The notes under the pieces: model-generated
The model's database searches: none
Told to the model about the DNA's origin: nothing
The model's input: only the letters and a program-made list of their open reading frames with translations
Position numbers and translations under genes: made by a program
DNA from: Actinomycetota bacterium
Lineage (GTDB): Bacteria > Actinomycetota > Acidimicrobiia > Acidimicrobiales > SZUA-35
Reading direction: 5' to 3'
Length of the DNA: 64,000 nt
Assembly: GCA_039195375.1 (NCBI GenBank)
Contig: JBCCVL010000004.1
Coordinates: 8,173-72,172, forward strand
In this document: positions 21,128 to 57,500 of the stretch, in pieces
Numbering within the stretch: position 1 is the first letter of the stretch
Layout: each line of letters starts with the position of its first letter

Positions 21128-21215
21128 GGAGGCGAGTATGGCCGACGCACCGGTCGACGACGATGGGGACCGGTCCCCCTCGCCCGATGGGGTGGGTCTC
21201 CCTACCGTCGGCGAC

Positions 21216-28723: not shown

Positions 28724-28766
28724 GGCCGGCGGCCGAGCAGGCCGGGCCGGGTCGGACCCGGATTGG

Positions 28767-29771: not shown

Positions 29772-29830
29772 CCAGTCTGTCTACCGCCCGCCCATCCGCC
29801 CCACCACCGCCCCGACAGTAGGATCGACCC

Positions 29831-40442: not shown

Positions 40443-43400
40443 GTGCATCGAGCCGACAAGCGTGGAGGCGCGCCAATCGATGCTCCGTCGCGCCCACGAA
40501 CGTTGGCTGTTCTCGCCCTTGGAGTCGGCGCCTGCTACCTGTGGTGGCGGACCACCACGCTCGGCTCCGGCTCCCAGCTGGCCATCGCCGTGCCGGTGCT
40601 CGTGCTGGAGTTCTGGGCCTACGTCGAGCTGCTCCTGCTGACGCTCCAGTCCTGGCGCCTTCCACCGGCCACCGCCCGAAGCCGGAGCGGACGACCGGAC
40701 GGCACCGTCGACATCGTTGTCATCGCCGCCGGCGCCGACCCGGACGACCTGGAACGTACGCTGATCTCGTGCCGGGCGGTCCGGGGCCGCGACCGCATCA
40801 TCGTCGTCGACGACGAGCGGCGGATCCGTCACCGCGCCCTCGCCACCGACGCCGGCGCCTCGTACCGGATCGACCGAAGGGCCCTCTCCGCCCCCGGACT
40901 GGCCGCTCACCGGAACACCACCGCTGCGCTGTACCTGTGGCTGATGGCGGGGCAGCTCCCCACCGCCGATCTGCTCGAGGTCGCCGGCCCCCGCTTCGTC
41001 GAACGCGATCTGGCCGTGTGCCAGCTCGCCATCCGCCTGCTGAACCAGGAGGACCTGGCCCACCTCGGGCGCGACGCCGACGACGATGCCCTCGTCAACA
41101 ACGTGGTCGGCCCCGGCCTCTCCCGCTGGGGTGCGGGACCGTGGATCGGCCCAGCCTCGGTCGTTCGGCGCCGGGCCATCGAAGCGATCGGCGGATTCGA
41201 CCGTCACGTCCCGATCGACCGCCTCGGCGCCAGGCTCCACGGGGCCGGCTGGACGACGGCGTTCGAGCGACGCCAGCTCGTGGCCGCCACCGCTCCCGAG
41301 TCGATCGACCTGTACCTGGCCAAGCGCCGACGGGACGGCGGGGCCGCGCTCTCGGTCCTGCTCTCGCCCGATGGCCCCCTGAACCCTCGGCACGCCATGA
41401 CCGTCGGCCAGCGGGTGGCCCACCTCGCCGCCGCCGCTCGGCACGCCACGAGCCTCCGCCTCCTCGGCCTGGCCACCGCCGCGGTGGCCGTCGTGCTCAG
41501 CGGCGCGTTCCCGGCCGAGACGCCGGCCTTTGCGCTGCTCGTCTCCTGGGCGGCCGTCACCGCCCTGTCGTCGGCGGCCAAGCGAGCCCTGGCCCGGGGC
41601 ACGATGGGCTACGGCGATTGGCTCCGGCAGGGCTGGAGGGTCCTCGGGGCCGACGTCGCCGCCGCCGTCGATGCGGCAACCAAGCGGGTCGGGACGACCG
41701 TCGTCGACGTCGAACCGGACCGGGCCACCGGCGGGTGGCGGTCGTTGCTACACCTGCCGCTGGTCCAGATCGTCGTGCTGACGGTCGACGCCGCCCTGCT
41801 CGTCCGGGCCGCCAGCCTGCTCGATCGCGACCTGCTGCCAGCCTTCACCGGCGCCCAGCGGGTGGTCACCATCGGCTTCGCCATCGCCCTGCTGGTCCCG
41901 ATCGTCGACATGCTGCAGGTCATCGTGGTCCGTCAGCAGCAGCGGACGAGCTACCGGATCCAGGCCGAGCTCGACGCCACGGTCGACGGCACCCCGGCCC
42001 GCACCGTCGACATCACCCCGGAGGGTGCCGGCGTGCTGCTCGCCGCCGAGCCCGCGATCGGCTCCACCGTGTCGCTCGAGATCTCGCTGCCCGGCGCCGA
42101 TGGCGTCATCCGCCGGATCGTGGCCACCGCCGTCACCCGCGCCGCAAGACCGGAGGGCACCGACCGGTGGCGGGCCGGGTTCGAGCTGACCCAGATGGCG
42201 GCCCCGGCCAGGCAGGCGTTGGTTGCGTTCTGCGCCGAGCTGGAGTCGGACGACATCGACGAGGACCAGGCCACGGCCCTCGATCCCGTCGCGGCCCAGG
42301 AGCTGCGTCGCCGCCGGTCGCTCCGCCGGATCACCCTCGGTGCCGGCGTTGCCGGCCTGGCGACGATGGTCTTCGGCCCGACCGTCGCCTCCGCCTCGAC
42401 CACCACCCCCCATCTCGTCGAGTCCGTCTGCGTCGTCGACCCGGACGGCGGTCCCGTCCCCGAGGTCGGGATCAGCCGCCTGACCGGCGACGTCGCCGAC
42501 GTCCTCGGCGCCACGACCCTGACCGGCTGCCTCGATGTCGGCGCCGTCGAGACCACCACCGGGTTCACGATCGACCACCGGGGCCTGGTCCACGAGCTCC
42601 AGCCGGCCGACTACCGCACGACGGAGGCCGTGGTCACGCTGCGCCGCTGGGCGGTCCGGGTCTACGACCTCGATGCGACTCCCCGTGGCGACGTCGAGGT
42701 CCGGTACTTCAGCGACCGCTGGTTGGCCACGGCGCCGCCGACCGCCGTTGACGAGGGCCACCGGTTCGATGCGCCACCGGTCGACGGCGGCGCACTCTCG
42801 GTCGAGGTCACACTCGACGGGTCCCGCCTGGTCCGGGCCTTCGGTGCCGACGGTGTGATCGTGCTGTCGCGGGTCCGGCTGGAGCCCGAGGTCGACGAGG
42901 CCGGTCAGCCGGTGACCACCTGGCTCGACCGCGGTCGTGGCTGGGAGCCGGCGGGCGACGGCATGGAGTTGGTGCCGGGCCGGATCGTGGTCCGGACCGG
43001 TGACGGCACCATCCTGCGCCTCGACGTGCCCGAGGCGTCCGAGCTGCGGCTGCCGGCCGGTGACATCGTGCCCGTCGAGGTCGAGCTGCCCGAGCTGCCG
43101 GTCGACGAGCAACCCCAGCAACCGGCCGACGGCGAGGTGCCGGCCGACGACCCGGACGGCGGTCCGCTCGACGACCCGATCGAGGGAACCACGTCGACCT
43201 CGGTCGTCGACGAGGACACCCCGGCCTCGACCGCAGTGCCGACCGACGACGGTGACGTCTCGACATCGGAGCCGGCGTCCGAGCCAGGCGACGCCGTCGA
43301 TCCCGGCTCCACCTCGACGGCACCGCCGTCGGCCGAGCCGACGCCGACCACGGTCCCGTCCACCACCTCACCGACCCCCTCGCCGTCCTCGACCGCACCG

Positions 43401-43508
43401 ACGACGGCGCCGCCAACGGACGTATCGTCCTCGACGACGGCGACGACCGGTGGGGCCGAGACGTCGTCGACCGCCACCGGCGGTGATCCCGGAGGCGGCG
43501 GTCCATGA
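40443..43508 (+). CDS. BcsA-like GT2-family membrane protein with a PilZ domain and a roughly 430-aa extracytoplasmic S/T/P-tailed C-terminus; catalytic motifs look degenerate
   Basis: SD GAGGAG (40428-40433) before GTG 40443. Two TM segments, then a GT2-like region (VDIVVIAAG..IIVVDDERR, GPASVVRRRAIEAIGGF). PilZ: RQQQR, 21 aa, DITPEG. A further TM segment (ITLGAGVAGLATMVFG) is followed by the C-terminal region. Confidence 0.7.
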   Translation: MHRADKRGGAPIDAPSRPRTLAVLALGVGACYLWWRTTTLGSGSQLAIAVPVLVLEFWAYVELLLLTLQSWRLPPATARSRSGRPDGTVDIVVIAAGADPDDLERTLISCRAVRGRDRIIVVDDERRIRHRALATDAGASYRIDRRALSAPGLAAHRNTTAALYLWLMAGQLPTADLLEVAGPRFVERDLAVCQLAIRLLNQEDLAHLGRDADDDALVNNVVGPGLSRWGAGPWIGPASVVRRRAIEAIGGFDRHVPIDRLGARLHGAGWTTAFERRQLVAATAPESIDLYLAKRRRDGGAALSVLLSPDGPLNPRHAMTVGQRVAHLAAAARHATSLRLLGLATAAVAVVLSGAFPAETPAFALLVSWAAVTALSSAAKRALARGTMGYGDWLRQGWRVLGADVAAAVDAATKRVGTTVVDVEPDRATGGWRSLLHLPLVQIVVLTVDAALLVRAASLLDRDLLPAFTGAQRVVTIGFAIALLVPIVDMLQVIVVRQQQRTSYRIQAELDATVDGTPARTVDITPEGAGVLLAAEPAIGSTVSLEISLPGADGVIRRIVATAVTRAARPEGTDRWRAGFELTQMAAPARQALVAFCAELESDDIDEDQATALDPVAAQELRRRRSLRRITLGAGVAGLATMVFGPTVASASTTTPHLVESVCVVDPDGGPVPEVGISRLTGDVADVLGATTLTGCLDVGAVETTTGFTIDHRGLVHELQPADYRTTEAVVTLRRWAVRVYDLDATPRGDVEVRYFSDRWLATAPPTAVDEGHRFDAPPVDGGALSVEVTLDGSRLVRAFGADGVIVLSRVRLEPEVDEAGQPVTTWLDRGRGWEPAGDGMELVPGRIVVRTGDGTILRLDVPEASELRLPAGDIVPVEVELPELPVDEQPQQPADGEVPADDPDGGPLDDPIEGTTSTSVVDEDTPASTAVPTDDGDVSTSEPASEPGDAVDPGSTSTAPPSAEPTPTTVPSTTSPTPSPSSTAPTTAPPTDVSSSTTATTGGAETSSTATGGDPGGGGP

Positions 43509-44086
43509 GCGTCCGCCGACTGCTGTTCAGCGTCCTCGGTGCTGCCATCGTGCTCGGCGCCGCCGGGTTGCTGACCCTGCGTGCCGTGACCACGTCGAGC
43601 GCCCGACTCAGCGCCTCGACCTCGGGGTCGGGCACGTTCGAGGCCGGCACCGTCGACCTCGCGCAGCCGGAGTCGATCGTCAACCTGCTGTTCGACGCAG
43701 ACGGCCTCTACCCCGGGGTCGTGATCCCGTCGTGTCTGGTGATCGGCTACGACGGCAGTCTCGACGCCGGCGTCCGCCTGCACGCAGCCAACGCCGGGGG
43801 CGACGGGCTGGAGGACCACGTCGACCTGCGGCTGTGGCTCCGGCGCTCCGGCGACTGCCCGGACGACGCAGGCCAGACCGCCGCCGACCGGGGACCGCCG
43901 ACCTTCGACGGACTCCTCGGCGACCTCTGGCGCACCCACCCCGACTACGACCGTGGCCTGATCCTCATCGATCAGGCCACAGCCGGCGATCGCCTGGTAC
44001 TCGACGCCGAGGTGGAGCTGCGCCACGACCCCGACGCCCAGGGTCGGACGACCGAGTTCACCATCACCCTCGAGGCCAGGCCATGA
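43505..44086 (+). CDS. TasA/camelysin-like protein 1 with a SipW-type signal peptide
   Basis: ATGA overlap with the upstream gene. Signal anchor plus ...SGSGTFEAGTVDL..., a YPG strand, and a C-terminal EFTITLEA. Two Cys. Confidence 0.65.
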   Translation: MSVRRLLFSVLGAAIVLGAAGLLTLRAVTTSSARLSASTSGSGTFEAGTVDLAQPESIVNLLFDADGLYPGVVIPSCLVIGYDGSLDAGVRLHAANAGGDGLEDHVDLRLWLRRSGDCPDDAGQTAADRGPPTFDGLLGDLWRTHPDYDRGLILIDQATAGDRLVLDAEVELRHDPDAQGRTTEFTITLEARP

Positions 44087-47000
44087 GGTGGCTCACTGGC
44101 ATCCCGCTCGATCGGGTCCGTCGCGCCGCAGCGAGACCGGACCAGCTGGCGCGCCTGGTCGCCGGCTTCGTCGCCTACCTCTACCTCGCCGTCGTGTTGT
44201 TGCTCGGCGCATGGCTGGTGGTCATCAGCCTGACGACCGGCTGGCGGCCGGTGGTGATCACCGGTGGCTCGATGCTGCCGACGCTTCGGGTCGGCGACGT
44301 CCTCCTGGTCGAGGACCACCCGGACGGGCTCCTCGGCCAGCGCTCGGTCATCACCTTCGAGCCGACCAGGGGCGATGGGGCGATCACCCACCGCATCCAC
44401 GAGGTGTTGCCCGAGTCCCAGACCTACCTCACCAAGGGCGACGCCAACGCCGACGTCGACAGCGATCCGGTCAGCCCGTCGCAGGTGCTCGGGGTCGGAC
44501 GGCTGGTCATCCCGCTGCTCGGCCTGCCCGTCATCTGGGGGCTGAACGGCGACTGGCCGGCTCTGGCCGCCATCGGTGTGCTCTCGATCGGTGCCGTCGT
44601 CATCGTGGTGTCCAACGCCGTCGGTGACCGGTCGAGCAACCGGTCCGGGTCGGGGCGGACCTCGGAGATGGCGAACCGGGGGATCCGCCGCGTCCGGTTC
44701 CTGGCCGGCCTCATGATCGTCAGTGGCCTGTACCTCGACGGCTCCAGCATCGAGGAGGTCGGCTGGGGGCCCGGCCGCAACCAGGTGGTGGCCCTCACCC
44801 TCGCCGTGCTGATCGCCGTCAACCTGATCTCGACCACCGCCTCCAGCCGGGGTCGCCACCTCGGTCGTGATGGCCCGCCCGACTGGCTCGTCCTGGCCGA
44901 GCTCGGCGCCGACACCGTCCTCGCCGGCGTCCTGATCGCCCTCACCGGCGGCTCGGGCATCGCCTGGGCCTTCATCGCCCTGCCGATCGTCGAGGCCGCC
45001 GTGCGGTTCCGACTGGTTGGCGCACTCCTCCACTGGGTCCTGATGACGCTGCTCACCGTCGGGGCCCGCTTGTTCGCGCTCGACCGCGGCGGCGTGCCGC
45101 TGTCGGAGATCATCAACGAGCTGGAGCAGTTGCTCGACCAGCTCGGGATCCTCCTGCTGCTGGTCATCCCCGGCGCCTACCTGACCGAGCAGCTCGTCAC
45201 CGACGTGATCCGCCAGGATCGGGCCACCGCGGTCGCCATCGAGCGGGCCCGGCTGCTCGAGAAGGTGGCCGAGACCGGCTACGAACTGAACCGGATCGGC
45301 AACGAGCTGTTCCAGACCCTCACCAGGGCCGTGACGTCGCTCGGGTTCGACCTCGGCGACGCTCATCTGCTGCTACCGGACGGGCGCTGGAAGGCGCTGG
45401 CTGCGTCACCCATCGAGCGGGATCGGGCGTTGCCGGAACCCGGCGAGGCCGGGAGCGGTCTCCGCACGGACGACCTCGGCATGAACGAGGTCCTCGTCGA
45501 CCACGACGATCCCGAGTTGTCCGAGGTCCTCAGCCTGCAGGCCCACGACCTGGAGATGCTGGCCCGGCTGACCGTGTCGACCGAGGAGGGGCGCCACGTC
45601 GTCGTCCGGGCCGCCAACCTGACCGGTTCCGGCCTCCGGGCCGGCAGCATCGATGCGCTCCGCCTCCTGACCGGCCAGGCCGCGGTGGCGATGCAGAACG
45701 AGCAGCTCGTCGACGAGCTGCAGGGCGTCCAGGAGGAGCTGGCCCAGCAGGCGTTGCACGACGCGCTGACCGGGCTGCCGAACCGGGCGCAGTTCCTCGA
45801 TCGGCTCGAGCGGGGCCTGGCGATGGCAACCGACCCCGAGCGGCGTCATGTCGTGATGTTCATGGACCTCAACGGGTTCAAGGCGATCAACGACTCGCTC
45901 GGTCACGATGCCGGCGATGCGCTGCTCATCGGGGTGGCCGGCCGGCTCACGTCTGCGGTCGCCGACGACGGCCTGGTCGCCCGGCTCGGCGGCGACGAGT
46001 TCACCGTGCTGTTGGAGCCGGTGGCCGACATCAACCGGGCCATGGCGGTGGCCCAACGCATCCACGATGCGGTGGCCGAACCGTTCCAACTCGGCGACGA
46101 GCGGGCCGAGGTCAGCGGCAGCATCGGGCTGGCCCCGGCCGAGCTCGGGCTCGGCGGGAGTGAGATCCTGCGCCGGGCCGACGTGGCCATGTATGCCGCG
46201 AAGTCGTCGAGGGCAACGCCCCGCATCACGATCTACCATGCCTCGCTCGACGGGCAGGACCAGCGGCGTGGTCGGCTCAGCGCCGAGTTCGTCAAGGCGC
46301 TCGAAGCCGGTGAGCTGCACCTCGTCTACCAGCCCCTCGTCGACCGCGACGGCGACATCCGTGGCGTCGAGGCGCTCCTGCGCTGGACCCACCGCGAGAT
46401 GGGGCCCGTCAGCACCGCCACCATCCTCGAACTGGCCGAGGCCGCCGACCGGGTCGACGAGCTGGCCGCCTTCATCTTCGGCACCGCGACGGCCAGCATC
46501 GCCGGGCTCGGTATCCCCCGCCACGTCGACTTCACCCTGGCGGTCAACGTCACCCCGACCGAGTTGGGCTCCCCGAACCTGGTCGAGTTGGTTCGCCAGT
46601 CGCTGGCCGACAGCCGTCTCGGAGCCGAACGGCTGATCATCGAGCTCAACGAGCGGGTGGTGGCCGACGGCGAGGGCTCGCTCGACAACATCCACCGGGT
46701 CGTCGCCATGGGGGTCCGGCTCGCCCTCGACGACTTCGGCGAGGGACGTACCTCACTCGGGCACCTCCGTGGCCTGCCGATCAGCCAGCTCAAGCTCGAC
46801 CTCGGCCTGGTGCAGCAGGCGGCCGAGTCCGACTCGGATCGCATCATCCTCGACTCGATGGTTGGCCTGGCCCACGACCTGCAGTTCGAGGTCGTAGCCG
46901 AGGGCATCGAGACCGAGAAGCAGCTGGAGGTCGTGCTCGGCGCCGGCGCTGATCTCCTCCAGGGGTACGGTCTCTACCGGCCGATGGAGCTCGATCGGCT

Positions 47001-47331
47001 CCGTCGGGTGCTCGGCGAGTTCGACCTGACCGGGCCGGTGACCCGGGCACTTCCCTTGCGTCCGCCAACGGGCCCGGGCCCGATCTCGGCGACGCGGCCG
47101 CCCCCGATGCCGACGCCGATCGTCGTCGACGAACCGGTCGCCCCGGTCGAACCGGCCATGCCCGAGGCCCCGACCAGACCGCCGGCCCGGGGCCCGGATC
47201 CGCCGGTTGCGATGTTGGCCGGCTCGCCCGGTGATGTCGGACCGCCGATCGATGATCCGCCGGCCGATCGGCGGTCGGTTCCGGCACCGCCGGCGCCCCC
47301 GACCCCGCCGAGCAGACGGGGGGTTGGCTGA
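44083..47331 (+). CDS. SipW-type (S26B) signal peptidase I fused to a polytopic membrane domain, a GGDEF domain and an EAL domain
   Basis: ATGA overlap. Peptidase: ITGGSMLPT, AITHRIHEV, TKGDANADVDSD. At least 6 further TM segments. GGDEF: NGFKAINDSLGHDAGD...RLGGDEFTV (about 45988-46002). EAL: YQPLV...EALLRW (46369), DDFGEGRTSLGHL, LKLD, VAEGIET, QGY. Pro-rich tail. Confidence 0.85.
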   Translation: MRWLTGIPLDRVRRAAARPDQLARLVAGFVAYLYLAVVLLLGAWLVVISLTTGWRPVVITGGSMLPTLRVGDVLLVEDHPDGLLGQRSVITFEPTRGDGAITHRIHEVLPESQTYLTKGDANADVDSDPVSPSQVLGVGRLVIPLLGLPVIWGLNGDWPALAAIGVLSIGAVVIVVSNAVGDRSSNRSGSGRTSEMANRGIRRVRFLAGLMIVSGLYLDGSSIEEVGWGPGRNQVVALTLAVLIAVNLISTTASSRGRHLGRDGPPDWLVLAELGADTVLAGVLIALTGGSGIAWAFIALPIVEAAVRFRLVGALLHWVLMTLLTVGARLFALDRGGVPLSEIINELEQLLDQLGILLLLVIPGAYLTEQLVTDVIRQDRATAVAIERARLLEKVAETGYELNRIGNELFQTLTRAVTSLGFDLGDAHLLLPDGRWKALAASPIERDRALPEPGEAGSGLRTDDLGMNEVLVDHDDPELSEVLSLQAHDLEMLARLTVSTEEGRHVVVRAANLTGSGLRAGSIDALRLLTGQAAVAMQNEQLVDELQGVQEELAQQALHDALTGLPNRAQFLDRLERGLAMATDPERRHVVMFMDLNGFKAINDSLGHDAGDALLIGVAGRLTSAVADDGLVARLGGDEFTVLLEPVADINRAMAVAQRIHDAVAEPFQLGDERAEVSGSIGLAPAELGLGGSEILRRADVAMYAAKSSRATPRITIYHASLDGQDQRRGRLSAEFVKALEAGELHLVYQPLVDRDGDIRGVEALLRWTHREMGPVSTATILELAEAADRVDELAAFIFGTATASIAGLGIPRHVDFTLAVNVTPTELGSPNLVELVRQSLADSRLGAERLIIELNERVVADGEGSLDNIHRVVAMGVRLALDDFGEGRTSLGHLRGLPISQLKLDLGLVQQAAESDSDRIILDSMVGLAHDLQFEVVAEGIETEKQLEVVLGAGADLLQGYGLYRPMELDRLRRVLGEFDLTGPVTRALPLRPPTGPGPISATRPPPMPTPIVVDEPVAPVEPAMPEAPTRPPARGPDPPVAMLAGSPGDVGPPIDDPPADRRSVPAPPAPPTPPSRRGVG

Positions 47332-47942
47332 TGGCCCGATCCCTGCTCGACCTGCACGACGCCGACGACGGCGGCACCATCGATGATCGCGAGAATCGGG
47401 TTGGCCGACTGGCCGCCGCTGCCTTGGCGGCGGCGGTTTCGGCGTTGATCATCGGTTCGCTCGTGGTGACGTTCAGCGACCGGGCGCTCGGGCCGGACGG
47501 CACGGTCGCGGCGGCCACGGTCACGTCGGGCACGATCTCGCTGGTCGACGACGACCAGGGGCGGTCGTTGTTCGACCTCGCCGACATGGCCCCCGGGCGT
47601 CCCGTCGTCCATTGCATCGAGCTGGTCTACGACGGCACGATCGTGCCCGTCGACCTGGCCATGCGGGCCGAGGCGTCCGGCGACCTGACCCGCTTCCTCG
47701 ACGTCGCCGTCGAGTCGGGCAAGGGCGGCGGCTTCGATGACTGCAGCGGTTTCGAGTCGACCGGCCAGGTCTACGGCGGGACGCTGGCCGAGCTCGCCGC
47801 CTCGGGGTGGCTCGATCTCGGGACGCTGGTCAATGCGGGCCAGCGCAGTAGCTACCGGATCTCGTTCGAGCTCCAGGATCGCCAGGAGGCACTCGGCCGC
47901 GCCGCCAACGCCTCGTTCGTCTGGGAGGTGACGCCGACATGA
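47331..47942 (+). CDS. TasA/camelysin-like protein 2
   Basis: TGATG junction. ...LVVTFSDRAL...ATVTSGTISL..., MAPGRPVVHCIELVYDG, and a C-terminal SFVWEVTP. Two Cys. Confidence 0.6.
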   Translation: MARSLLDLHDADDGGTIDDRENRVGRLAAAALAAAVSALIIGSLVVTFSDRALGPDGTVAAATVTSGTISLVDDDQGRSLFDLADMAPGRPVVHCIELVYDGTIVPVDLAMRAEASGDLTRFLDVAVESGKGGGFDDCSGFESTGQVYGGTLAELAASGWLDLGTLVNAGQRSSYRISFELQDRQEALGRAANASFVWEVTPT

Positions 47943-48721
47943 CCGAAACGACCGACACCAGCGGCAGGGGGCCGGACCCCGGGCCGATACGCGACGGGCG
48001 GGACACCCCCTCGGGCTCCGGCCCGACAGCCGGTCCGACCGCCGACCCGACGGCCGCGGCCGGCGATCGTCGACGCGTTGCGCTCCTCGTCGCCGCCTCG
48101 GTGGTGGTGGCGCTGCTCGGCGTGTCCGTCCCCGTCGGTGTCGCCCTGGTGAGCCGCAGCTCGTCGGCAAGCTTCGCCGATCGGGAGGTCCTGGCCACGA
48201 ACCGCCTCGGCGCTGCCACCCTCGACCTCCAGGTCGACGGCGGGTCGTCGAACTCCCCGCTCGTCGAGCTCGGCGAGGGTCCGCAGGCGATCGACGAGGA
48301 CACGAGCAACGCGGTGTTCGTCGCCACCAACCTCGCGCCCGGCGATCGTGTGTCCGGCCACCTGGAGATGACCAACCGGGGTGACCTCCCGTTGCGGTAC
48401 GGCCTCCAGGCGGTCAGTTCCGACGGGATGCTCGCCGAGTGGCTGCGGTTCGAGGCGTGGGTCGGGAGCGGAATCTGCTCGCCGGACCAGGCCGGACCCC
48501 GGTTGGTGAGCGAGGCCAGGGTCTCCGCCGAGCCGGCGGTCCTGCTGCCGCTCGCCACACCGGCGGGAGCGACCCCGCTGAACGTGTTGGAGCCCGGCGA
48601 GTCGACCCTGTGGTGCCTCGGCGCCACGCTGTTGCTGGAGACCCCGAACGAGGCCCAGGGTCAGGCGCTCGACGTGACCCTCTTCGTGCCGATCGAGCAG
48701 GTCGTCGAGGTCGGGCCGTGA
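47939..48721 (+). CDS. TasA/camelysin-like protein 3
   Basis: ATGA overlap. ...SSSASFADREVLATNRLGAATLDL..., NLAPGDRVSGHLEMTNRGDLPLRY. Two Cys. Confidence 0.65.
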   Translation: MTETTDTSGRGPDPGPIRDGRDTPSGSGPTAGPTADPTAAAGDRRRVALLVAASVVVALLGVSVPVGVALVSRSSSASFADREVLATNRLGAATLDLQVDGGSSNSPLVELGEGPQAIDEDTSNAVFVATNLAPGDRVSGHLEMTNRGDLPLRYGLQAVSSDGMLAEWLRFEAWVGSGICSPDQAGPRLVSEARVSAEPAVLLPLATPAGATPLNVLEPGESTLWCLGATLLLETPNEAQGQALDVTLFVPIEQVVEVGP

Positions 48722-51700
48722 CCGGCGCCGACGAGCTCGCCTCGCCTCCACCGGTGTCTCGCCGAGCCCGGATCACCGGGATCCTGGTCACGACCACATC
48801 GCTTGTCGTCCTCGGGCTGGTCGGGGTGGTCGTCGGTGGGCTCCTGGCCGGCTATCGCCCGGTCGTGATCCTGACCGGCAGCATGGGCGACACCGCTCCT
48901 CCCGGGTCGCTGGTCGTCGCCGCACCGGTCGACGGCGACGCCGTGGCCACCGGTGACATCCTCGTGATGCGCCGACCGGACGCAGCGACCGTCACCCACC
49001 GGGTGATCGAGATCGAATCCGCCGGCGCCGACCGTTTCGCCATCACCCGGGGCGACGCCAACGAGGCACCGGACGCCGCCCCGTACCCCTTGACCGGTGA
49101 CCAGCTGGTCGGCCGGTTCGCCGTCCCACGACTGGGCGAGCTGGCCCTCACCGTGTTCCAGCCCGGTCTGGTCTTCGCCCTGGTCGGCCTGGCCACGTTC
49201 GTGTTCGCCCTTGGGGCGCTGCGTCGGATCTGGGCCGGACCGGATCTGCCCGCCGACCTCGACCCCGACGTCGACCCCGACCCTGACGTCGATCCCGAGT
49301 ACGAGCACGGCGCCGGCGTCGACCCCGGGCTGCACCACGACGAGACCGGGTCCGGTACCCACGATCGGGGTGGGGCGGCCCCCGCGCCCCGGCGGGGGCG
49401 TCGCAAGCTTGCCCTGTTCGTCGTGCCGGTCGTGCTCGCCGGCAGCGCCGGGGTGGCGTGGGCGCTGGCCCAGGCCACCGCCCCGGTCGACGCCAACACC
49501 TTCGGCACCGCCCAGTGCTTCGACCCCGAGCTCCACTCGGTCCAGCAGGGCGAGACCGTCCATTCGATCAGCGGCACGATCAACGTGCCGATCGCGGCCG
49601 TCGACCCGACCACGTCGTTTGTCGTCGCATCGCTCCGCAGCAACGCCTCCGACCCGGCCGACTCGATGGTCCAGGTCGAGCTCGGCGGCGGGGGCACGAC
49701 CGTCGACCTGGTCAGGGCCACCGATGCCGGCTCGCCTCCGCCGGTGGTCGTGAACTGGTCGGTCGTCTCCTACGCCTGCGGCGTCACCGTGCAGCGGGGC
49801 TCGCTCAACGGCGATGGCACCGCCCAGCTCGACACGGCGATCACCGCCGTCGACCCGGGCTCGTCGTTCGTGCTGGTCAGCTCCGCCCCCGACTCGACCG
49901 CCTCGAGCTACGCCGGCAACGACCTGTTCGTCGGCGAGTTGGCCGACCCGTCGACGGTCCGGATCCGGGCCACCGGCTCGACGTTCCCGACCGGCCAGAG
50001 CTTCGCCTGGCAGGTGGTCGAGTTCGACGACTCCGCCGATGCCACCGTTCAGACGATCTCCGCCACCCTCGGCCTCGGCGTCACCTCGACGACGGCGACG
50101 ATCCCGAGCCCGGCCGACCCGGACACCACGCTGCTGCTGGCATCCGCCCTCTCGGCCGCTTCGGGGGCCGACATCGGCGAGCGGCTGATCCGGACCCATC
50201 TGGTCGACGCCACGACGGTGGCCGTCGACCGGGCCGTCGGCGGCGACCCCGTCGAGGTCCGCATCCAGGTCGTGACTCTGGCCGACGGCTCGATCGTGCG
50301 CCACGGGACCGTCGACCTGGCCGCGGCCCAACCGGCGGCCACCGTCACGATCGACGCCGTCGACCCCGGCCGGGCCGTCGCCTTCTCGACCGTGGCCCAG
50401 CCCGGCGTCCCAGCCGGCGGCCTCAGCGACCACGTGGCCGACGACGTGCCCGGCGAGGCCAGCGCCACCTTCGACGTGACCGACCCGACCACCGTGTCGA
50501 TCACCCGCGATGCGTCGTCCTCCAACGCCTCCTTCGGCTGGCAGGTGGTCGAGTGGGCCGGGCCCCGCTGGTGGGACAGCGCCTACAGCTTCCGGCAGCG
50601 CATCGACGTCGTCACCTCGGCAACCGCTGCTCCCGACGCCTACACCGTGCCTCTCGTCCTCGACCACGCCTCGCTGGTCGGCTCGGGCCTGGCCCAGGGG
50701 AGCGGTGACGACCTGCGGGTCCTGCGGTGGGACGGCACGGCCTGGGCCGAGCTCGACCGCGTGCTCGAGGACGGCTCCGCCTGGAACCGGGCCGACACCG
50801 AGCTCTGGTTCCGCACCACCGACCCGATCGCCGCCGACACCACCAACACCTACTGGCTGTACTTCGGCAACGGGGCCGCCGGCACCGCCCCCGCCGACCC
50901 CGAGGCGGTGTTCCTGCTCACGGAGGACTTCGACGCCGGGACGCTCGGCGACTTCGAGGACCGGACCGGCGGCACCGGCTGGTATCAAGCCATGCCGTGG
51001 ACCCGCCGGATCCCGGTCACCGTCGCCGCCGGCACCGCCAGCGCTGACCTCACCGACTTCCCGCTGCTCGTCTCGCTGACCTCGGCCGACCTTGCGGCCA
51101 ACGCCAACGGCGACGGGAGCGACATCCGCTTCACGTCCGCAGACGGGGTCACCCCCCTCGCCCACGAGATCGAGTCGTACGATGACGGCACCGGGGCTCT
51201 CGCCGCCTGGGTTCGGGTGCCGACGGTCAGCGCCGGTTCGGCCACGACGGTGTACCTCTACTACGGCGCGAGCGACGCCCCGGCCCAGCAGGACGTCCGG
51301 GGCACCTGGCCAGAGGAGATCCGGGCCGCCTGGCACCTGGCTCGCGACCCGTCCGGCTCTGCCCCCCAGCTCGACGACTCGACGCCGTTCAACAACGACG
51401 GCCTCAGTTCCGGGGCCATGACCTCCGGTGACCTCGTCAACGGGGCGGCCGGACCGGCGGTCGACCTCGACGGCGGCGACGACCACCTCCGAGCCGCGCC
51501 GTTCGACGTCGCCGGTGCCGGCGGGCTCACCGTCTCGGCCCTGGTCCGGCTCGACGCCCTGCCGGCCGGCGAAGGCCGGGTCGTGGCCAAGGCCGCCGAC
51601 GGCTCGACCAGGATCGTCGAATTGGCGATCACCGCCGCCGGCGATCTGGTCGGTCGGCTCTCGCTCGACGGGTCCGAATCCCAGCTCACCGCTGGCACGG

Positions 51701-52365
51701 TTTCGACCGGTGTGTGGCGCCACCTGGCCATGACCTGGGACGGCACGACCCAACGGCTGTTCGTCGACGGTGTCGAGGTCGGCTCACAGCCGGCCAGCGG
51801 GGCCATCGACGCCGCAGCCACGATGCCGATCACGATCGGTGACCTGGTCACCGGCGGCGGTGCGATCGACGGTGCCGTCGACGAGGTCCGGATCGAGACG
51901 GTGGCCCGGTCGGCTGCCTGGCTGGCCGCGACCCAGGCCAACCAGCGGACCCCCGGCTCGTTCCTGTCGATCGGCGCAACCGAGGGTGGCTCCTGGTTCG
52001 ACCAGGGCACCTGGTCGTACCGCAAGCCGATCCGGGTCGAATCGGACCTCATCACCGCCGACCAGTCGGCCTACCCGCTGCTGGTCCAGGTGACCGACGC
52101 CGAGCTGTCGGCCGCAGCCACCGTCAACGGTCGCGATCTCGTGTTCACCGCCGCCGACGGCACCACCAGGCTCGACCACACCGTCGAGTCGTGGGACCGG
52201 GGCTCGGGGGCGCTGACCGCCTGGGTGCTGCTGCCGACGCTGTCGTCGAGCACCGACACCGAGCTGTTCCTCTACTACGGGAACGCCTCCGCCGCAGCCC
52301 AGGAGGACCCCACCGCCGTGTTCGGGCCCGAGGCCGACCTGGTCCTCACCGGGGCCGACTCATGA
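48718..52365 (+). CDS. Second SipW-type signal peptidase fused, through an internal SipW-type signal peptide, to a large beta-sandwich / DUF2341 / LamG passenger
   Basis: GTGA overlap. Peptidase: LTGSMGDT, VTHRVIEI, TRGDANEAPD. TM2, a DP-repeat linker, then RRGRRKLALFVVPVVLAGSAGVAWALAQATAPVDANTFGTA. Three W-x-V-V-E repeats follow. Three DUF2341-like units (W.YR..I.V ... DIRF/DLVF ... LYYGN) flank a LamG-like block (VWRHLAMTWDG...LFVDG). Confidence 0.8.
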   Translation: MTGADELASPPPVSRRARITGILVTTTSLVVLGLVGVVVGGLLAGYRPVVILTGSMGDTAPPGSLVVAAPVDGDAVATGDILVMRRPDAATVTHRVIEIESAGADRFAITRGDANEAPDAAPYPLTGDQLVGRFAVPRLGELALTVFQPGLVFALVGLATFVFALGALRRIWAGPDLPADLDPDVDPDPDVDPEYEHGAGVDPGLHHDETGSGTHDRGGAAPAPRRGRRKLALFVVPVVLAGSAGVAWALAQATAPVDANTFGTAQCFDPELHSVQQGETVHSISGTINVPIAAVDPTTSFVVASLRSNASDPADSMVQVELGGGGTTVDLVRATDAGSPPPVVVNWSVVSYACGVTVQRGSLNGDGTAQLDTAITAVDPGSSFVLVSSAPDSTASSYAGNDLFVGELADPSTVRIRATGSTFPTGQSFAWQVVEFDDSADATVQTISATLGLGVTSTTATIPSPADPDTTLLLASALSAASGADIGERLIRTHLVDATTVAVDRAVGGDPVEVRIQVVTLADGSIVRHGTVDLAAAQPAATVTIDAVDPGRAVAFSTVAQPGVPAGGLSDHVADDVPGEASATFDVTDPTTVSITRDASSSNASFGWQVVEWAGPRWWDSAYSFRQRIDVVTSATAAPDAYTVPLVLDHASLVGSGLAQGSGDDLRVLRWDGTAWAELDRVLEDGSAWNRADTELWFRTTDPIAADTTNTYWLYFGNGAAGTAPADPEAVFLLTEDFDAGTLGDFEDRTGGTGWYQAMPWTRRIPVTVAAGTASADLTDFPLLVSLTSADLAANANGDGSDIRFTSADGVTPLAHEIESYDDGTGALAAWVRVPTVSAGSATTVYLYYGASDAPAQQDVRGTWPEEIRAAWHLARDPSGSAPQLDDSTPFNNDGLSSGAMTSGDLVNGAAGPAVDLDGGDDHLRAAPFDVAGAGGLTVSALVRLDALPAGEGRVVAKAADGSTRIVELAITAAGDLVGRLSLDGSESQLTAGTVSTGVWRHLAMTWDGTTQRLFVDGVEVGSQPASGAIDAAATMPITIGDLVTGGGAIDGAVDEVRIETVARSAAWLAATQANQRTPGSFLSIGATEGGSWFDQGTWSYRKPIRVESDLITADQSAYPLLVQVTDAELSAAATVNGRDLVFTAADGTTRLDHTVESWDRGSGALTAWVLLPTLSSSTDTELFLYYGNASAAAQEDPTAVFGPEADLVLTGADS

Positions 52366-52387
52366 CCGGCGGCACCGCGCCGATGCT

Positions 52388-52402
52388 GTGGCCAGTGGCC
52401 AC
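52388..52402. promoter_or_regulatory. Perfect 7-1-7 palindrome in the only intergenic gap of the operon
   Basis: GTGGCCA g TGGCCAC, 43 nt upstream of the ATG of TasA-like gene 4. Confidence 0.25.
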
Positions 52403-52444
52403 CCGATCCGCGCCGGCCACGACGCCGGTGCAGAAAGGCACGAC

Positions 52445-53068
52445 ATGTCCACCTCCCCTCAGGCCCCCTCCAGGCGGGCGCCGGCTCGGCGCCGGGGCAA
52501 CGGTGCCCGCATGCTGGCCAGTGTCGCCGTGCTTGCCCTCGCCGGCGGTGTGTTCACCGTGTCGTCGCTCGCGTTGTTCACCGACTCCGAGGACGTGTCC
52601 GGCAACGCCTTCACCACCGGAACGGTCGACCTGACCGCCACCCCGGCCACCGCCGTGGTGACGGCGGCAAACATGGCTCCTGGTGACCAGGTGACCAATC
52701 CGCTCGACGTCGCCAACTCGGGCACGCTCGAGCTTCGTTACTCGATGGCGTCGGCCACCACCGAGGACGTCCTGGCGGCCGAGTTGGTGCTCACCGTCAA
52801 GGAGGGGGTCACCACGTGTGACGACTCGAACTGGAGCGCCGACGGGACCACCCTCTACTCGGGGCCGCTCGGCTCGACCGGAGGCACGCCCGTCATCGGC
52901 GACCCGACGCAGGGATCGCAGGCCGGTGATCGGGTGCTGGCCGCCGGGGCCGACGAGACGCTCTGCTTCAACGTGACGCTGCCCCTGTCGGCCGGGAGCA
53001 ACGCCGAGGGCCAGTCGACGTCGGCCACGTTCACCTTCGAAGGCGAGCAGACCGCCAACAACCCGTAG
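52445..53068 (+). CDS. TasA/camelysin-like protein 4 (the most canonical SipW-type signal)
   Basis: ...VSSLALFTDSEDVSGNAFTTGTVDL..., NMAPGDQVTNPLDVANSGTLELRY, and a C-terminal ATFTFEGEQ. Two Cys. Confidence 0.75.
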   Translation: MSTSPQAPSRRAPARRRGNGARMLASVAVLALAGGVFTVSSLALFTDSEDVSGNAFTTGTVDLTATPATAVVTAANMAPGDQVTNPLDVANSGTLELRYSMASATTEDVLAAELVLTVKEGVTTCDDSNWSADGTTLYSGPLGSTGGTPVIGDPTQGSQAGDRVLAAGADETLCFNVTLPLSAGSNAEGQSTSATFTFEGEQTANNP

Positions 53069-54437: not shown

Positions 54438-54515
54438 ATGTCGACATCCGGTGGTCCGGCAGCGGACACCGATCGATCACCGGCCGCCGGACCGCGCTCT
54501 CGCTCCGGATGGTGA
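54438..54515 (+). CDS. 25-codon upstream ORF with the strongest SD in the region, overlapping the start of the giant ORF
   Basis: GAAGGAGG (54423-54430), 7 nt, then ATG 54438. Peptide MSTSGGPAADTDRSPAAGPRSRSGW. Its stop TGA 54513-54515 overlaps ATG 54509 and GTG 54512 of the giant ORF (GTGA). Confidence 0.35.
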   Translation: MSTSGGPAADTDRSPAAGPRSRSGW

Positions 54516-57500
54516 GCCGGTCCGACCTCCGGCGTCGGGTGGCGACCTCGGTCGTCGCCTTCGTCGCGCTCCTGAGCCTGGTGGCGGGAACCCCGAGCCC
54601 CGTCCGGGCCCAGCCGATCGGGAACCAGGACGAGACCCCGACCACGACCGACCCGGGTGAGGCGAGCGATCCGGGTGGGTCGAGCGACCCGGGCGAATTG
54701 AGCGAGCCGACGCGGACGTCGTCGACGGACCCAGACGAGGCGACCGAGCCGGGGTCAGACGACCAAACGGGCCTGACACCAGCGGGTGAGGCGCCGGCCG
54801 ACGACGCCGAGCCGTCCACCGATGGTGAGGCGTCGCCGACCAATGAGGAGACGGCGTCGAGCGACGGGGAGGCGCCGACCGACCGCCCGGCACCGCCGGC
54901 GGCCCTGTTCCTCACCAGGACCGGCCGGTCGACGATCCTGATCACCGACCCGGCGACCGGCTCGACGACGGGGGAGCGCCCGCTCACCGGCGTCGACGCC
55001 GCAGCGCCGTCCGGCCTGACGGTCGACGGCGATGGCGAGGTCTACGCGGCCGACGGCGTCGCCGGGACGGTCGAGCGGTTCGACACCGATGACTCGACGT
55101 CGACGGTGGTCCTCGACCGGGTCGATCGAACCGATGCCGCCGTGCAGGCCGGGCTCGGGGACGCGCCGTTCCTGCCCCGCGGGCTCGCCGCTGGCGACGA
55201 CGGCACGCTCTACGTGGTCGACGCCGGCATCGACCGGGTCCTCGGCTTCGTCCCCGCCGGGCGGACCGGGACCCGGTACAACCGGCGCCCCGGGGTCGAA
55301 GCGCCACCGGTCCCGACGCTCGGCGCCGTCACCGGTGGGGCCCTCCGCGATCCGGTCGACGTGGTCGTCGTCGACGGCGAGCTGCTGGTCTCGGACCGCG
55401 GTGACGACGACATCGAGCGCTACGACGCCGTCACCGGCGAGCACCTCGGCACCCTGGCCACCCTCGAGCCGGGTGATCGACCGGCCGGTCTCGCGCTCAC
55501 CGACGACGGGCGCCTGCTCGTCGCGCTGTCCGGCCGGGGCGCGGTCGCCGCGATCGACCTGGCCGCCGGCGCTGTCGACGACGAGCCGCTGGTCGACGGC
55601 CTCGTCGGCCCGTCCGACGTGACGGTCGCCGCCGCCGGCAACGGCGACCCAGCCGACGACGTGCTGTGGGTCGCCGACGCCTGGGCCGGCACGGTGACCG
55701 CCCACGACACCGACTCCGGCGACCCGACCGGTCTGGCCATGACCGTCGACGACGGCACGCTCCCGTCGCTCCTGGCCGCCCGCTCCGAGCCGGCGCCGGC
55801 CGCCGAGCCGGGCGAACCGCTCGACGGCGACCCCGCCGTCGACGGCGATCCGGCAACAGACGATTCGGCCACCGGCGACGCACTGGACGCCCCACCCGGC
55901 GACGATCCCGTCCTCCCGACCAAGGACATCGACAACGCCGTCGACGGCACCCTCGACCTGTCGGAGCGGACCGACCAGTGGCTCGACCAGCTCGGCGACC
56001 CGGACGAGGGCGTCGAGTTCGCAACCAACACCGGCGCGGCCGACGTCGACGTCGACTTCGCCCTGGTCACGGAGACCTACGACGCCGTCATCGGCGAGGG
56101 TGAGGTCGCGCTGGTGGCCGAAGGCGAGTCGGTCACCGATGCGGTGGTCATGGAGGTGATCGGCTCGGCCCCCGACCCGGACGGCCGGATCCTCGAGACG
56201 TCGCCGATCCGGACCGACGTCGACCCGTCGTCGGAGAACGCCGTCGCCGACGCCCTCCCACCGGTGGTCGACGAACCGGGTGCCGCCGCCGCACCGGGCG
56301 GCAACCCGACCGTGGACCCCGACCTGGCCGACGAGGACGACGCCATCGAGGTCGAGGAGGTCCTCCCCGGCGTCGACGTGGTGTACTCGGCCGACGACGG
56401 CGACGTCGAGTACAGCTTCGTGATCGAACCGGGCGCCGACCCGGACGAGATCACGCTCGACTTCGACGGAGCCGAGGCCGTCAGCCTCCTCCCGAACGGC
56501 GACCTGCTGATCGAGTCGGAGTCCGGGCCCGACTACCGCTCGACCGCGCCGATCACGTATCAGGAGGTCGATGGCGAGCCGGTCATCATCCCGAGCGGCT
56601 ATCTGATCCGCGACGACGGCACCGTCGGCTTCACGCTCGGCGCCTACGACCCGTCGCTGCCGGTTGTCATCGACCCGACGTTCGTCGCCGTGAACAGCGC
56701 GAGCGGCTCGTACACCTCGGGCTCGACGATCGACCTGCCGGTGCCGACGACCGTGGCCACCGACGATCTGATGCTCGCCCACGTCGCCTGGAACATGTGG
56801 GGCAACACGAACGACATCACCCCGCCGGCCGGGTGGAACACCGTCAACGAGACGGCGGCCAACGGCCTGGTCCACGGCGTCTACTGGCGGATCGCCACCT
56901 CGTCGGAGCCGTCGAGCTACAGCTTCACCCTCACCGGCTCGACCGAGACCGCGGCCGGCTCGATCACCGTCTACGACGGGGTCGACACCAGCTCACCGAT
57001 CGATGTGTCCGCAACGCAGGGCAACTCGGCTGGCGCCGCCATCGTCGCGCCGTCGGTCACCACGACGGTCGACGACGCCACGCTGGTGGCGCTGTGGTCG
57101 GTCAGGGACGATGGCTCGTTGACCCAACCGGGTGCCATGACCGAGCGGATCGACGTGACCAGCTCGACCGGCGACACGGCCGACGAGGAGACGGTGGCGG
57201 CCGTGGCCGAGGAGACCATCGGCGCCGCCGGCTCGACCGGTACCCGGACCGCCACCGTCGACGCCTCAGCCGGTTCGATCGGCACCCTGGTGGCCCTCAA
57301 CCCGGCCAGCGGCGGTGGCGGCGGCAGCAATCTGGTGATGGTCACGGCCAACGGAGGATTCACCAGCGGCAACGACTCGGCCAAGCGCACCCTGTTCGAG
57401 GGCTGGGGTTGGACCGTGACCGCCATCGACGACAACTCGTCGGCCAGCGCCTACAGCTCCGCGGCGGCGGCCAACGACGTGATGTTCCTCTCGGACACGG

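Follow-up and report, generated by a model that had tools for sequence, protein, structure and literature searches.

A probable two-module operon of Acidimicrobiales for a TasA-superfamily extracellular fibre with a predicted link to cyclic di-GMP

A stretch of 64,000 nucleotides (nt) from an Actinomycetota bacterium (lineage Acidimicrobiia; Acidimicrobiales; SZUA-35; assembly GCA_039195375.1, contig JBCCVL010000004.1, positions 8,173 to 72,172), in the following called the window, carries a cluster of seven genes (g1 to g7) between its positions 40443 and 53068. This locus is probably an Acidimicrobiales-specific operon of two modules for an extracellular fibre of the TasA superfamily, which would be assembled by donor strands and linked to the second messenger cyclic di-GMP (c-di-GMP). 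Two of its products are unusual fusion proteins, i.e., a signal peptidase joined to a c-di-GMP enzyme and a second signal peptidase joined to its probable substrate.

Organization and conservation of the locus

The cluster consists of seven open reading frames (ORFs) on the plus strand, which feature a strong third-position GC bias in DNA with a G+C content of 72% over the whole window. In order, they encode a pseudo-glycosyltransferase of family 2 (GT2) with a PilZ domain, a TasA-like protein, a signal peptidase with GGDEF and EAL domains, two further TasA-like proteins, a signal peptidase with a large passenger and a last TasA-like protein (Table 1). Stop and start codons overlap as ATGA at 43505 (g1/g2), 44083 (g2/g3) and 47939 (g4/g5), as TGATG at 47329-47333 between g3 and g4, the latter starting at 47331, and as GTGA at 48718 (g5/g6). 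The only junction without an overlap is that of g6 and g7, where the stop codon of g6 at 52365 is followed by a gap of about 80 nt and g7 most likely starts at ATG 52445, preceded by a Shine-Dalgarno-like AAAGG; GTG 52388 is a possible alternative. The initial annotation of the window had correctly given the gene order, the coordinates and these five overlaps of 1-4 nt, and it had likewise recognized two dedicated SipW-like signal peptidases, the fusion of one of them to GGDEF-EAL, four TasA-like proteins and a PilZ protein. Its description of seven translationally coupled genes was slightly overstated because g6 and g7 do not overlap: coupling is predicted for g1 to g6, and g7 appears to be initiated at its own site. 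Upstream, g1 is separated from the preceding gene by 155 nt. A terminator scan between 40 and 54.6 kb found a single terminator-like site inside g6, fewer than expected by chance, and is uninformative on transcription units. An Rfam scan of 36-56 kb for c-di-GMP and other riboswitches yielded just two sub-threshold chance matches and no c-di-GMP riboswitch upstream of g3.

A survey of gene neighbourhoods, in which one genome per species was scanned, revealed 44 related loci, all of them in metagenome-assembled genomes (MAGs). Nearly all are labelled as Acidimicrobiales, Acidimicrobiia or more broadly as Actinomycetota, besides one Chthoniobacterales bin and one "uncultured bacterium". According to tblastn searches with each protein of the window, the order g2-g3-g4-g5-g6-g7 is the same in essentially every sufficiently long locus, which presents these six genes as a syntenic core in about 44 species-level Acidimicrobiales MAGs. 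The junctions are conserved as well. Counting each start codon in the downstream frame that overlaps the upstream stop codon by 1-4 nt, the overlap is kept between g2 and g3 in 41 of 42 related loci, between g4 and g5 in 36 of 38, between g5 and g6 in 34 of 35, between g1 and g2 in 13 of 15 and between g3 and g4 in 26 of 42, and g6 and g7 are usually separated by a gap. This recurrence in related loci indicates that the stop/start coupling exceeds chance. A relative with 67% identity (L002, 12334-17710) features g1-g2-g3, behind which the ORFs are unrelated and tblastn detects nothing that matches g4-g7. It may be degraded, misassembled or a real variant, and the "3x" in its contig name possibly denotes low coverage.

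A signal peptidase fused to GGDEF and EAL domains

The central gene of the first half of the locus, g3, encodes a signal peptidase I followed by a domain of several transmembrane (TM) helices, a GAF, a GGDEF and an EAL domain and a Pro-rich tail. Its peptidase reaches 55.5 bits with the signal peptidase I model TIGR02228 (cut-off 51.85) and contains the catalytic motifs GGSM, THR and GDAN. Within the aligned family, at least 90% of the sequences possess Ser63, and His103, Asp120 and Asp126 do not vary. The peptidase of g6 scores 61.1 bits with the same model, and its motifs GSM, THR and GDAN are conserved in 36 aligned sequences with the single exception of one KGSAN. Both peptidases are of the endoplasmic reticulum (ER)/archaeal type (S26B, SipW-like), with a Ser-His instead of a Ser-Lys active site. 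Neither of them is an ortholog of Bacillus SipW, because the equivalog model NF046067 is matched with a score of only 41, far below its cut-off of 190. A structure model of g3 (mean predicted local distance difference test score, pLDDT, 72.6) begins with a TM helix and a beta-rich ectodomain, after which come another TM helix, about five further helices, a long stalk and an alpha/beta domain; a fold search assigned the latter to GAF and matched the ectodomain to human SEC11C (7P2Q_A).

In the window, the c-di-GMP domains of g3 feature the motifs RLGGDEF, EALLRW, DDFGEG, KLD, EGIET and QGY. Among 40 orthologs, nearly all retain the GGDEF motif and the complete set of EAL catalytic motifs, and an RxxD I-site is absent from the window protein and from these orthologs. 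In g3, a signal peptidase of the ER type is therefore combined with a bifunctional c-di-GMP enzyme, and both parts appear to be active. The NCBIfam model of LapD also matches g3 (1e-34), which reflects generic GGDEF-EAL homology. The combination of this peptidase with its membrane part is rare: a word-indexed search returned 14 homologs, and 37 clusters were found at E <=1e-30 among 1.84 billion representatives, most of them 960-1050 amino acids (aa) long. The exact g3 sequence of the window has no database record, and its relatives were reached by homology; those with names are annotated merely as "signal peptidase I", "EAL domain-containing protein", "diguanylate cyclase (GGDEF)-like protein" or "hypothetical protein". 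A distant version in the representative library (P0078) consists of peptidase, TM domain and GGDEF without EAL.

The direction in which such a protein might transmit a signal can be conceived in two ways. It is possible, if rather doubtful, that g3 senses from the outside to the inside, in that the occupancy of its peptidase by the signal peptides of preproteins, and thereby the export flux, or else an envelope signal perceived by the membrane domain sets the balance of cyclase and phosphodiesterase. Commitment to a sessile life would in that event be confined to periods in which fibre subunits are exported, and the local c-di-GMP would be read by the PilZ domain of g1 and other receptors. This is favored by the intact appearance of the enzymes, by the fact that peptidase and membrane domain form a unit which is almost always followed by GGDEF-EAL in the 37 representative clusters and, in one clade, by the translational coupling of the PilZ protein two genes upstream of g3. 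Moreover, SipW of B. subtilis reportedly has a second, regulatory role in biofilm formation. Nevertheless, g1 is absent from most loci, and the GAF domain suggests a cytoplasmic ligand as at least one input.

Control in the opposite direction is regarded as unlikely. In this case, the GGDEF, EAL and GAF domains would sense c-di-GMP or a cytoplasmic ligand and switch the outer peptidase, comparable to LapD and LapG within one polypeptide, so that subunits mature only at high or only at low c-di-GMP and the enzymatic output is secondary. An established precedent is provided by GGDEF-EAL receptors of the LapD type, which control a periplasmic protease, and the conserved multi-helix membrane domain, the long stalk helix and the GAF domain between the peptidase and GGDEF-EAL correspond to a layout for transmembrane signaling. 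Still, receptors of the LapD type possess degenerate GGDEF and EAL domains, whereas the intact domains of g3 and its missing I-site point to an enzyme over a pure receptor. The enzyme and the receptor reading of g3 are mutually compatible.

TasA-like paralogs

The four small proteins g2, g4, g5 and g7 all belong to the TasA superfamily and are homologous to one another, as follows from profile comparisons and from the structure model of g2. Only g7 exceeds the cut-offs of the hidden Markov models (HMMs), with 42.1 bits for Peptidase_M73 (PF12389; cut-off 22.5) and 29 bits for the cognate_SipW signal peptide model TIGR04088 (cut-off 19). The Peptidase_M73 scores of g2, g4 and g5 (13.4, 13.3 and 19.8 bits) lie below the cut-off; 21 of 33 g5 orthologs match this family. 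The model for the alternate-type signal peptide, TIGR04089, found no match in any of the seven proteins at E <=0.1. Family alignments built from the related loci and compared by hhalign gave probabilities of 99.9% for g5 and g7, 99.8% for g2 and g4, 97.5% for g2 and g7 and 94.6% for g4 and g7. Furthermore, the family profile of g7 matches B. subtilis TasA (8AUR/5OF1) at 8e-8, and that of g5 matches TasA (5OF1/8AUR) at 2e-5 and AbpX weakly at 0.013. The paralogs can be divided into a class A with g2 and g4 and a class B with g5 and g7, which results in the symmetric order A-peptidase-A, B-peptidase-B.

Of the four paralogs, g2 is the only one modeled and the weakest case in the HMM searches. 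Its AlphaFold (AF2) model (pLDDT 85.5) has TasA (5OF1/5OF2) as its top three matches in the PDB, with probability 1.0, E values of 1.4e-4 to 5e-4 and template modeling (TM) scores of 0.40-0.49, and is consistent with a TasA-like jelly-roll fold. The segment behind the signal peptide (residues 28-45) is disordered in the model (pLDDT <50), as would be expected of a free donor strand. Each of the four families features a hydrophobic N-terminal helix followed by a conserved motif as well as two invariant Cys. In g7, the motif behind the helix reads SLALFTDxExVxxNxFxTGT, and the predicted end of the signal peptide lies within it at SLA/LFTDSEDVSGNAFTT (here and below, a slash marks the end of a signal peptide). 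With a mean column identity of 60%, g7 is the most conserved of the paralogs.

The initial annotation had referred to amyloid-like fibres of TasA. The current view is that these fibres are not amyloid and that they polymerize by donor-strand exchange (PMC9674648). It is very unlikely that the small proteins are not fibre subunits at all and instead represent secreted proteases similar to camelysin or monomeric surface or spore-coat-like proteins, in a cassette for the secretion and processing of surface enzymes and a large lectin-like protein. The matching Pfam family Peptidase_M73 is indeed named after camelysin, a metalloprotease, and the earliest description of TasA presented it as associated with spores (PMC4551309). 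Nevertheless, all structurally characterized members of the superfamily (TasA, AbpA, AbpX and cannulae) form donor-strand polymers. The N-terminal strand motif is conserved in all four paralogs and in the g6 passenger, several paralogs together with a tip-like protein are the pattern reported for fibre loci, and the disordered N-terminal segment of the g2 model likewise argues for subunits of a fibre.

A signal peptidase fused to a preprotein

In g6, the second peptidase is continued by an acidic linker in the cytoplasm and by an internal signal peptide of the SipW type, behind which a passenger of 960 aa begins. The passenger, which had been described as giant, is indeed fused to the peptidase; it is more than cargo, and is probably a substrate of that peptidase, because it starts with this signal peptide and an N-terminal motif similar to that of TasA. 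In 20 aligned orthologs, the second TM helix leads into an acidic linker, which is variable, and then into an Arg-rich region, a hydrophobic core and the sequence GVAWA/L-x-x-S-x-x-x-V-x-x-N-x-F-x-T. An alignment of 26 sequences shows no variation at N10 and F12 of the mature passenger. The motif is in register with the N-terminus of g7 over 14 residues, a likeness that is not significant on its own (hhalign probability 3.8%). A TasA-like body of the passenger was considered and rejected, as the profile comparison with the g7 family aligned nothing beyond this N-terminal motif. The remaining passenger comprises four beta repeats, three DUF2341 domains (1e-30) and a Laminin_G_3 domain (1e-23); both domain families had been expected from the sequence. 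A sequence search of the PDB with the passenger returned only 4QVS, an S-layer-domain protein which matches the LamG region.

At least 20 species or independent genomes encode the fusion in one continuous ORF, and an assembly or frameshift artefact was rejected on this ground. Split versions occur mostly in MAGs of the MFD series (L001, L007, L021, L022 and L037) and in L003, and may result from frameshift errors. In two related loci (L036, 10885-12105; L046, 4710-5804), the second peptidase shares one ORF with a complete g7-type preprotein including its own signal peptide, and in L043 it stands alone. In addition, unrelated SipW-like peptidases are fused via similar internal "AxA/(A)F.S.T" peptides to a LamG_3 passenger (P0183) or to RCC1 repeats (P0186). 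On the basis of L036, L046 and the unrelated LamG and RCC1 fusions, the joining of a signal peptidase to its substrate appears to be recurrent, and P0183, P0186 and the above-mentioned P0078 hint at a wider class of such fusions.

By analogy, the g6 passenger is probably a tip, nucleator or anchor adhesin similar to TapA. Proteins with DUF2341 have been proposed as tip adhesins of pili (PMC4858521). In the bundling pili of Pyrobaculum, AbpB possibly initiates the filament by providing the complementing strand, and its distal domains could be adhesins (PMC9245690). TapA reportedly acts by strand complementation (PMC10151520).

A BcsA homolog with degenerate catalytic motifs

The first gene, g1, encodes two TM helices, a degenerate GT2 domain, about four TM helices, a PilZ domain, an internal signal-anchor, a beta-rich ectodomain and a Ser/Thr/Pro-rich tail. 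For GT2, Pfam yields a weak match which does not reach the cut-off of 27 bits (Glyco_trans_2_3, 19.9 bits). The homology to BcsA is nevertheless clear, as the CelA model matches at 2.5e-16 and E. coli BcsA (7LBY) at 9e-15. The motifs were aligned for 17 sequences, namely the window protein and 16 orthologs, together with E. coli BcsA. The DCD of BcsA is replaced by AGQ in 17/17 sequences (FDCDHVP corresponds to WLxAGQVP), HAKAGN and TED are not conserved within the family, with TED being PID or variable, and QxxRW is changed to xRRxR without Trp in all of them (QRIRW of E. coli corresponds to KRRRD or xRRxR). BcsB-like or other polysaccharide genes are absent from the locus and its vicinity. 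Because the catalytic motifs of BcsA are lost in all 17 sequences and polysaccharide genes are missing nearby, g1 is most likely a catalytically dead homolog which would serve as a c-di-GMP receptor or scaffold and not as a synthase. The glycan-synthase-like gatekeeper of the initial annotation is therefore not upheld. It is highly improbable that g1 is an active, divergent processive glycosyltransferase whose c-di-GMP-controlled exopolysaccharide forms a joint matrix with the fibres, since its clear relationship to BcsA, which extends over the GT domain, the next TM helices and PilZ in the domain order of cellulose synthase, is countered by the lost motifs, the GT2 score below the cut-off and the lack of a BcsB-like or polysaccharide gene.

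The PilZ domain (PF07238, residues 497-598) scores 30.4 bits against a cut-off of 22.5. It carries the receptor motifs RxxxR and (D/N)xSxxG, the latter with Thr for Ser in the window, which predicts c-di-GMP binding; across the orthologs, they read QRRxxxR and D-[LIV]-[TSA]-x-x-G. Three orthologs (L008, L015 and L038) contain two PilZ domains in tandem rather than one. Behind PilZ, most aligned ortholog tails feature a hydrophobic core which is preceded by a basic n-region and terminated by an AxA-type sequence, and this internal signal-anchor would place the C-terminal domain outside the cell. PilZ is part of the locus in the window, as had been noted, and g1 occurs in only 17/44 loci (about 40%), which form the clade nearest to the window. 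As more than half of the related loci lack g1, the PilZ wiring appears to be accessory and outside the conserved core.

Proposed mechanism

In the proposed fibre operon, module A would comprise g2, g3 and g4, i.e., class-A subunits on either side of a signal peptidase, and module B g5, g6 and g7, i.e., class-B subunits on either side of the second one. Sec would export the subunits, and the two dedicated peptidases would then cleave them, each probably acting on one class; that these process the signal peptides of the adjacent TasA-like proteins is inferred from conserved adjacency. The N-terminal strands set free in this way would allow polymerization outside the cell by donor-strand complementation. 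Since g7 is the most conserved paralog and possesses its own ribosome-binding site, it is the candidate for the major subunit, with g2, g4 and g5 as putative minor or adaptor subunits. The g6 passenger would be cut by the fused peptidase in cis or in trans and then cap, nucleate or anchor the fibre like a TapA or AbpB tip, being made one-for-one with the peptidase, and its DUF2341 and LamG domains would be the adhesive part. Via the membrane domain of about seven helices and the GAF domain between the peptidase ectodomain and GGDEF-EAL, g3 could tie the processing of fibre subunits to c-di-GMP turnover at one membrane site, with coupling in either direction. Where present, g1 would be the local c-di-GMP receptor that relays the signal to the cell surface, and a giant FG-GAP protein encoded downstream is a probable matrix partner.

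Several points weigh against this scheme. The support is wholly computational, and every genome is a MAG. With 13 bits each, g2 and g4 match the Pfam family weakly, the g2 model resembles TasA only moderately, and the likeness of the g6 passenger to TasA is restricted to the mentioned 14 residues. The passenger could equally remain anchored in the membrane via the third TM helix. One peptidase per class is suggested solely by the gene order, and the PilZ protein cannot be the universal output because g1 is missing from most loci. Moreover, a promoter scan between 40 and 54.6 kb found zero promoter-like sites.

A further-reaching idea, which is speculative and unlikely to hold as a whole, combines two assumptions: the peptidase cycle of g3 would be allosterically coupled to c-di-GMP turnover, with g1 reading the signal, and g6 would belong to a wider class of "self-substrate" peptidases. 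If this were true, a cell could measure or gate the export flux of fibre subunits and convert it into a local second-messenger signal. Likewise, a self-substrate peptidase which cleaves its cargo at an internal signal peptide would provide exactly one tip or nucleator per processing site.

Comparison with known systems

The locus resembles tapA-sipW-tasA of B. subtilis, the founding member of this general type, and sipW-tasA-calY with CapP of B. cereus, in which an ER-type peptidase likewise adjoins TasA-family subunits, whose signal peptides it cleaves there. Further similarities are the presence of more than one subunit paralog (TasA and CalY) and, as predicted for the present locus, an accessory protein whose N-terminal strand is like that of TasA (TapA) and an assembly independent of sortase. 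In contrast to these loci, the present one encodes two peptidases and four paralogs of two classes; one peptidase is fused to TM, GAF, GGDEF and EAL domains and the other to its probable substrate, so that the TapA-like component is no separate gene, and a pseudo-BcsA/PilZ protein is coupled to the operon. Besides, the host is a member of the Actinomycetota, class Acidimicrobiia, and the identity of its subunits to TasA is very low and detectable only by profiles or fold.

Loci of the TasA superfamily with a dedicated signal peptidase I, minor and tip subunits and neighboring c-di-GMP enzymes have been described (10.64898/2026.01.04.697558, 2026 preprint). With these AbpX/AbpA/Tafi-type loci of archaea and bacteria (see also PMC9245690), the present one shares a TIGR02228 signal peptidase I with extra TM helices and, by prediction, major and minor subunits and a tip protein; a fusion of their peptidase to an accessory domain (DUF5305) has been noted. 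Their c-di-GMP enzymes are encoded by separate neighboring genes, whereas here GGDEF-EAL is part of the peptidase polypeptide, and neither a fusion of peptidase and tip nor a PilZ-bearing pseudo-synthase was reported. The subunits of the window are nearer to TasA proper than to AbpX, as seen from the weak match of the g5 profile to the latter.

With BcsA, g1 shares homology over GT2, the next TM helices and PilZ including RxxxR and DxSxxG. Unlike BcsA, the g1 family lacks DxD, TED and QxxRW, features fewer N-terminal TM helices and no BcsB partner, and carries an additional C-terminal signal-anchor with ectodomain and, in some orthologs, tandem PilZ domains. The likeness to the LapD-LapG-LapA system of Pseudomonas is conceptual, as in both cases a membrane protein with GGDEF-EAL is linked to an extracytoplasmic protease, which there acts on a giant adhesin and connects c-di-GMP to attachment. 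However, LapD is a degenerate receptor and LapG a separate cysteine protease, whereas the domains of g3 look active and its protease is a fused signal peptidase; homology between LapD and g3 is limited to the generic GGDEF-EAL domains.

In the literature, no description was found of a signal peptidase fused to GGDEF-EAL, of a signal peptidase fused to its own substrate or of a PilZ-bearing dead BcsA homolog coupled to a TasA-type operon, nor was a direct protein-level link between TasA-type fibres and c-di-GMP. The statement of the initial annotation that no such system was described is thus confined to the physical fusions, which constitute the novelty, as the general type of locus with neighboring c-di-GMP enzymes is already known from the preprint. 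How Gram-positive bacteria time and place TasA-type matrix fibres is poorly understood, and a signal peptidase within a c-di-GMP enzyme would concretely link protein export to the decision for a sessile life. The fusions of peptidase and substrate in g6, L036, L046 and the unrelated LamG and RCC1 proteins suggest a simple way to fix the ratio and the position of a nucleator, and a dead BcsA homolog would be one more example, besides those already known, of an enzyme scaffold that came to serve as a receptor for a second messenger. Because the system is conserved across the order, it may explain the attachment and aggregation of these abundant, mostly uncultured Actinomycetota of soil, marine and wastewater habitats.

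Feature coordinates and neighboring genes

Table 1. Positions of the genes, domains and motifs of the locus within the window (SPase, signal peptidase; slash, end of signal peptide).
Feature	Position	Strand	Description
g1	40443..43508	+	BcsA-like pseudo-glycosyltransferase, PilZ, C-terminal ectodomain
g1 LMAGQLP	40941..40961	+	At the position of BcsA FDCDHVP (DxD); acidic residues lost (alignment)
g1 PilZ domain	41931..42236	+	PF07238
g1 RxxxR motif, RTSYR	41943-41957	+	Predicted c-di-GMP-binding motif of PilZ, kept in all orthologs
g1 D-x-[S/T]-x-x-G motif, DITPEG	42009-42026	+	Predicted c-di-GMP-binding motif of PilZ, kept in all orthologs
g1 internal signal-anchor/signal-peptide-like segment	42306..42395	+	RRRRSLRR-ITLGAGVAGLATMVFGPTV-ASA
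g2	43505..44086	+	TasA-like subunit, class A
g3	44083..47331	+	Signal peptidase I, multi-TM domain, GAF, GGDEF, EAL, Pro-rich tail
g3 SPase	44083-44637	+	TIGR02228
g3 TM domain	44638-45297	+	
g3 GAF	45298-45720	+	Fold search of model
g3 GGDEF	45751-46209	+	6e-41
g3 EAL	46288-46983	+	3e-52
g4	47331..47942	+	TasA-like subunit, class A
g5	47939..48721	+	TasA-like subunit, class B
g6	48718..52365	+	Second signal peptidase I fused to preprotein
g6 SPase	48718-49233	+	TIGR02228
g6 acidic cytoplasmic linker	49234-49386	+	
g6 internal signal peptide	49390-49470	+	SipW-type, RRGRRK-LALFVVPVVLAGSAGV-AWA/LA
g6 signal peptide and TasA-like N-terminal motif	49390..49509	+	V-x-x-N-x-F-x-T (VDANTFGT), ortholog alignment
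g6 four beta repeats	49468-50577	+	About 90 aa each
g6 three DUF2341 and LamG	50578-52362	+	Pfam
g7	52445..53068	+	TasA-like, class B, probable major subunit; own ribosome-binding site; alternative start GTG 52388
Giant secreted protein	54509..64000	+	>3160 aa, runs off the window end; NHL, DUF7948, beta-helix, many FG-GAP (Pfam)

Homologs of the giant FG-GAP protein follow g7 in most related loci, and the beta repeats of g6 are 31-35% identical to a part of it; it is a likely associated matrix or adhesin partner. Its role as a substrate of a SipW-type peptidase was rejected, as it features an ordinary Sec signal peptide ending with VRA/QP and no TasA-like motif. Between g7 and this gene, a membrane protein with a methyl-accepting chemotaxis (MCP) signaling domain is encoded on the minus strand (53126-54271), which among the related loci was found only in the window and in its closest, 91%-identical relative (L004). 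Directly upstream of g1, a fused multi-TM/spermidine-synthase-like protein is encoded (38866-40287, plus strand), whose position is conserved only in L004. Farther upstream, the window contains a gene for a protein of 1633 aa with FHA, Yop-YscD-like and FtsK/SpoIIIE ATPase domains (21108-26009, plus strand), which resembles secretion ATPases of the EssC/EccC type. Two signaling genes are located near the locus, one for an alpha/beta-hydrolase fused to an adenylate/guanylate cyclase domain (27380-29059, minus strand) and one for a large regulator with AAA_16 and LuxR (GerE) domains (29822-32554, plus strand).

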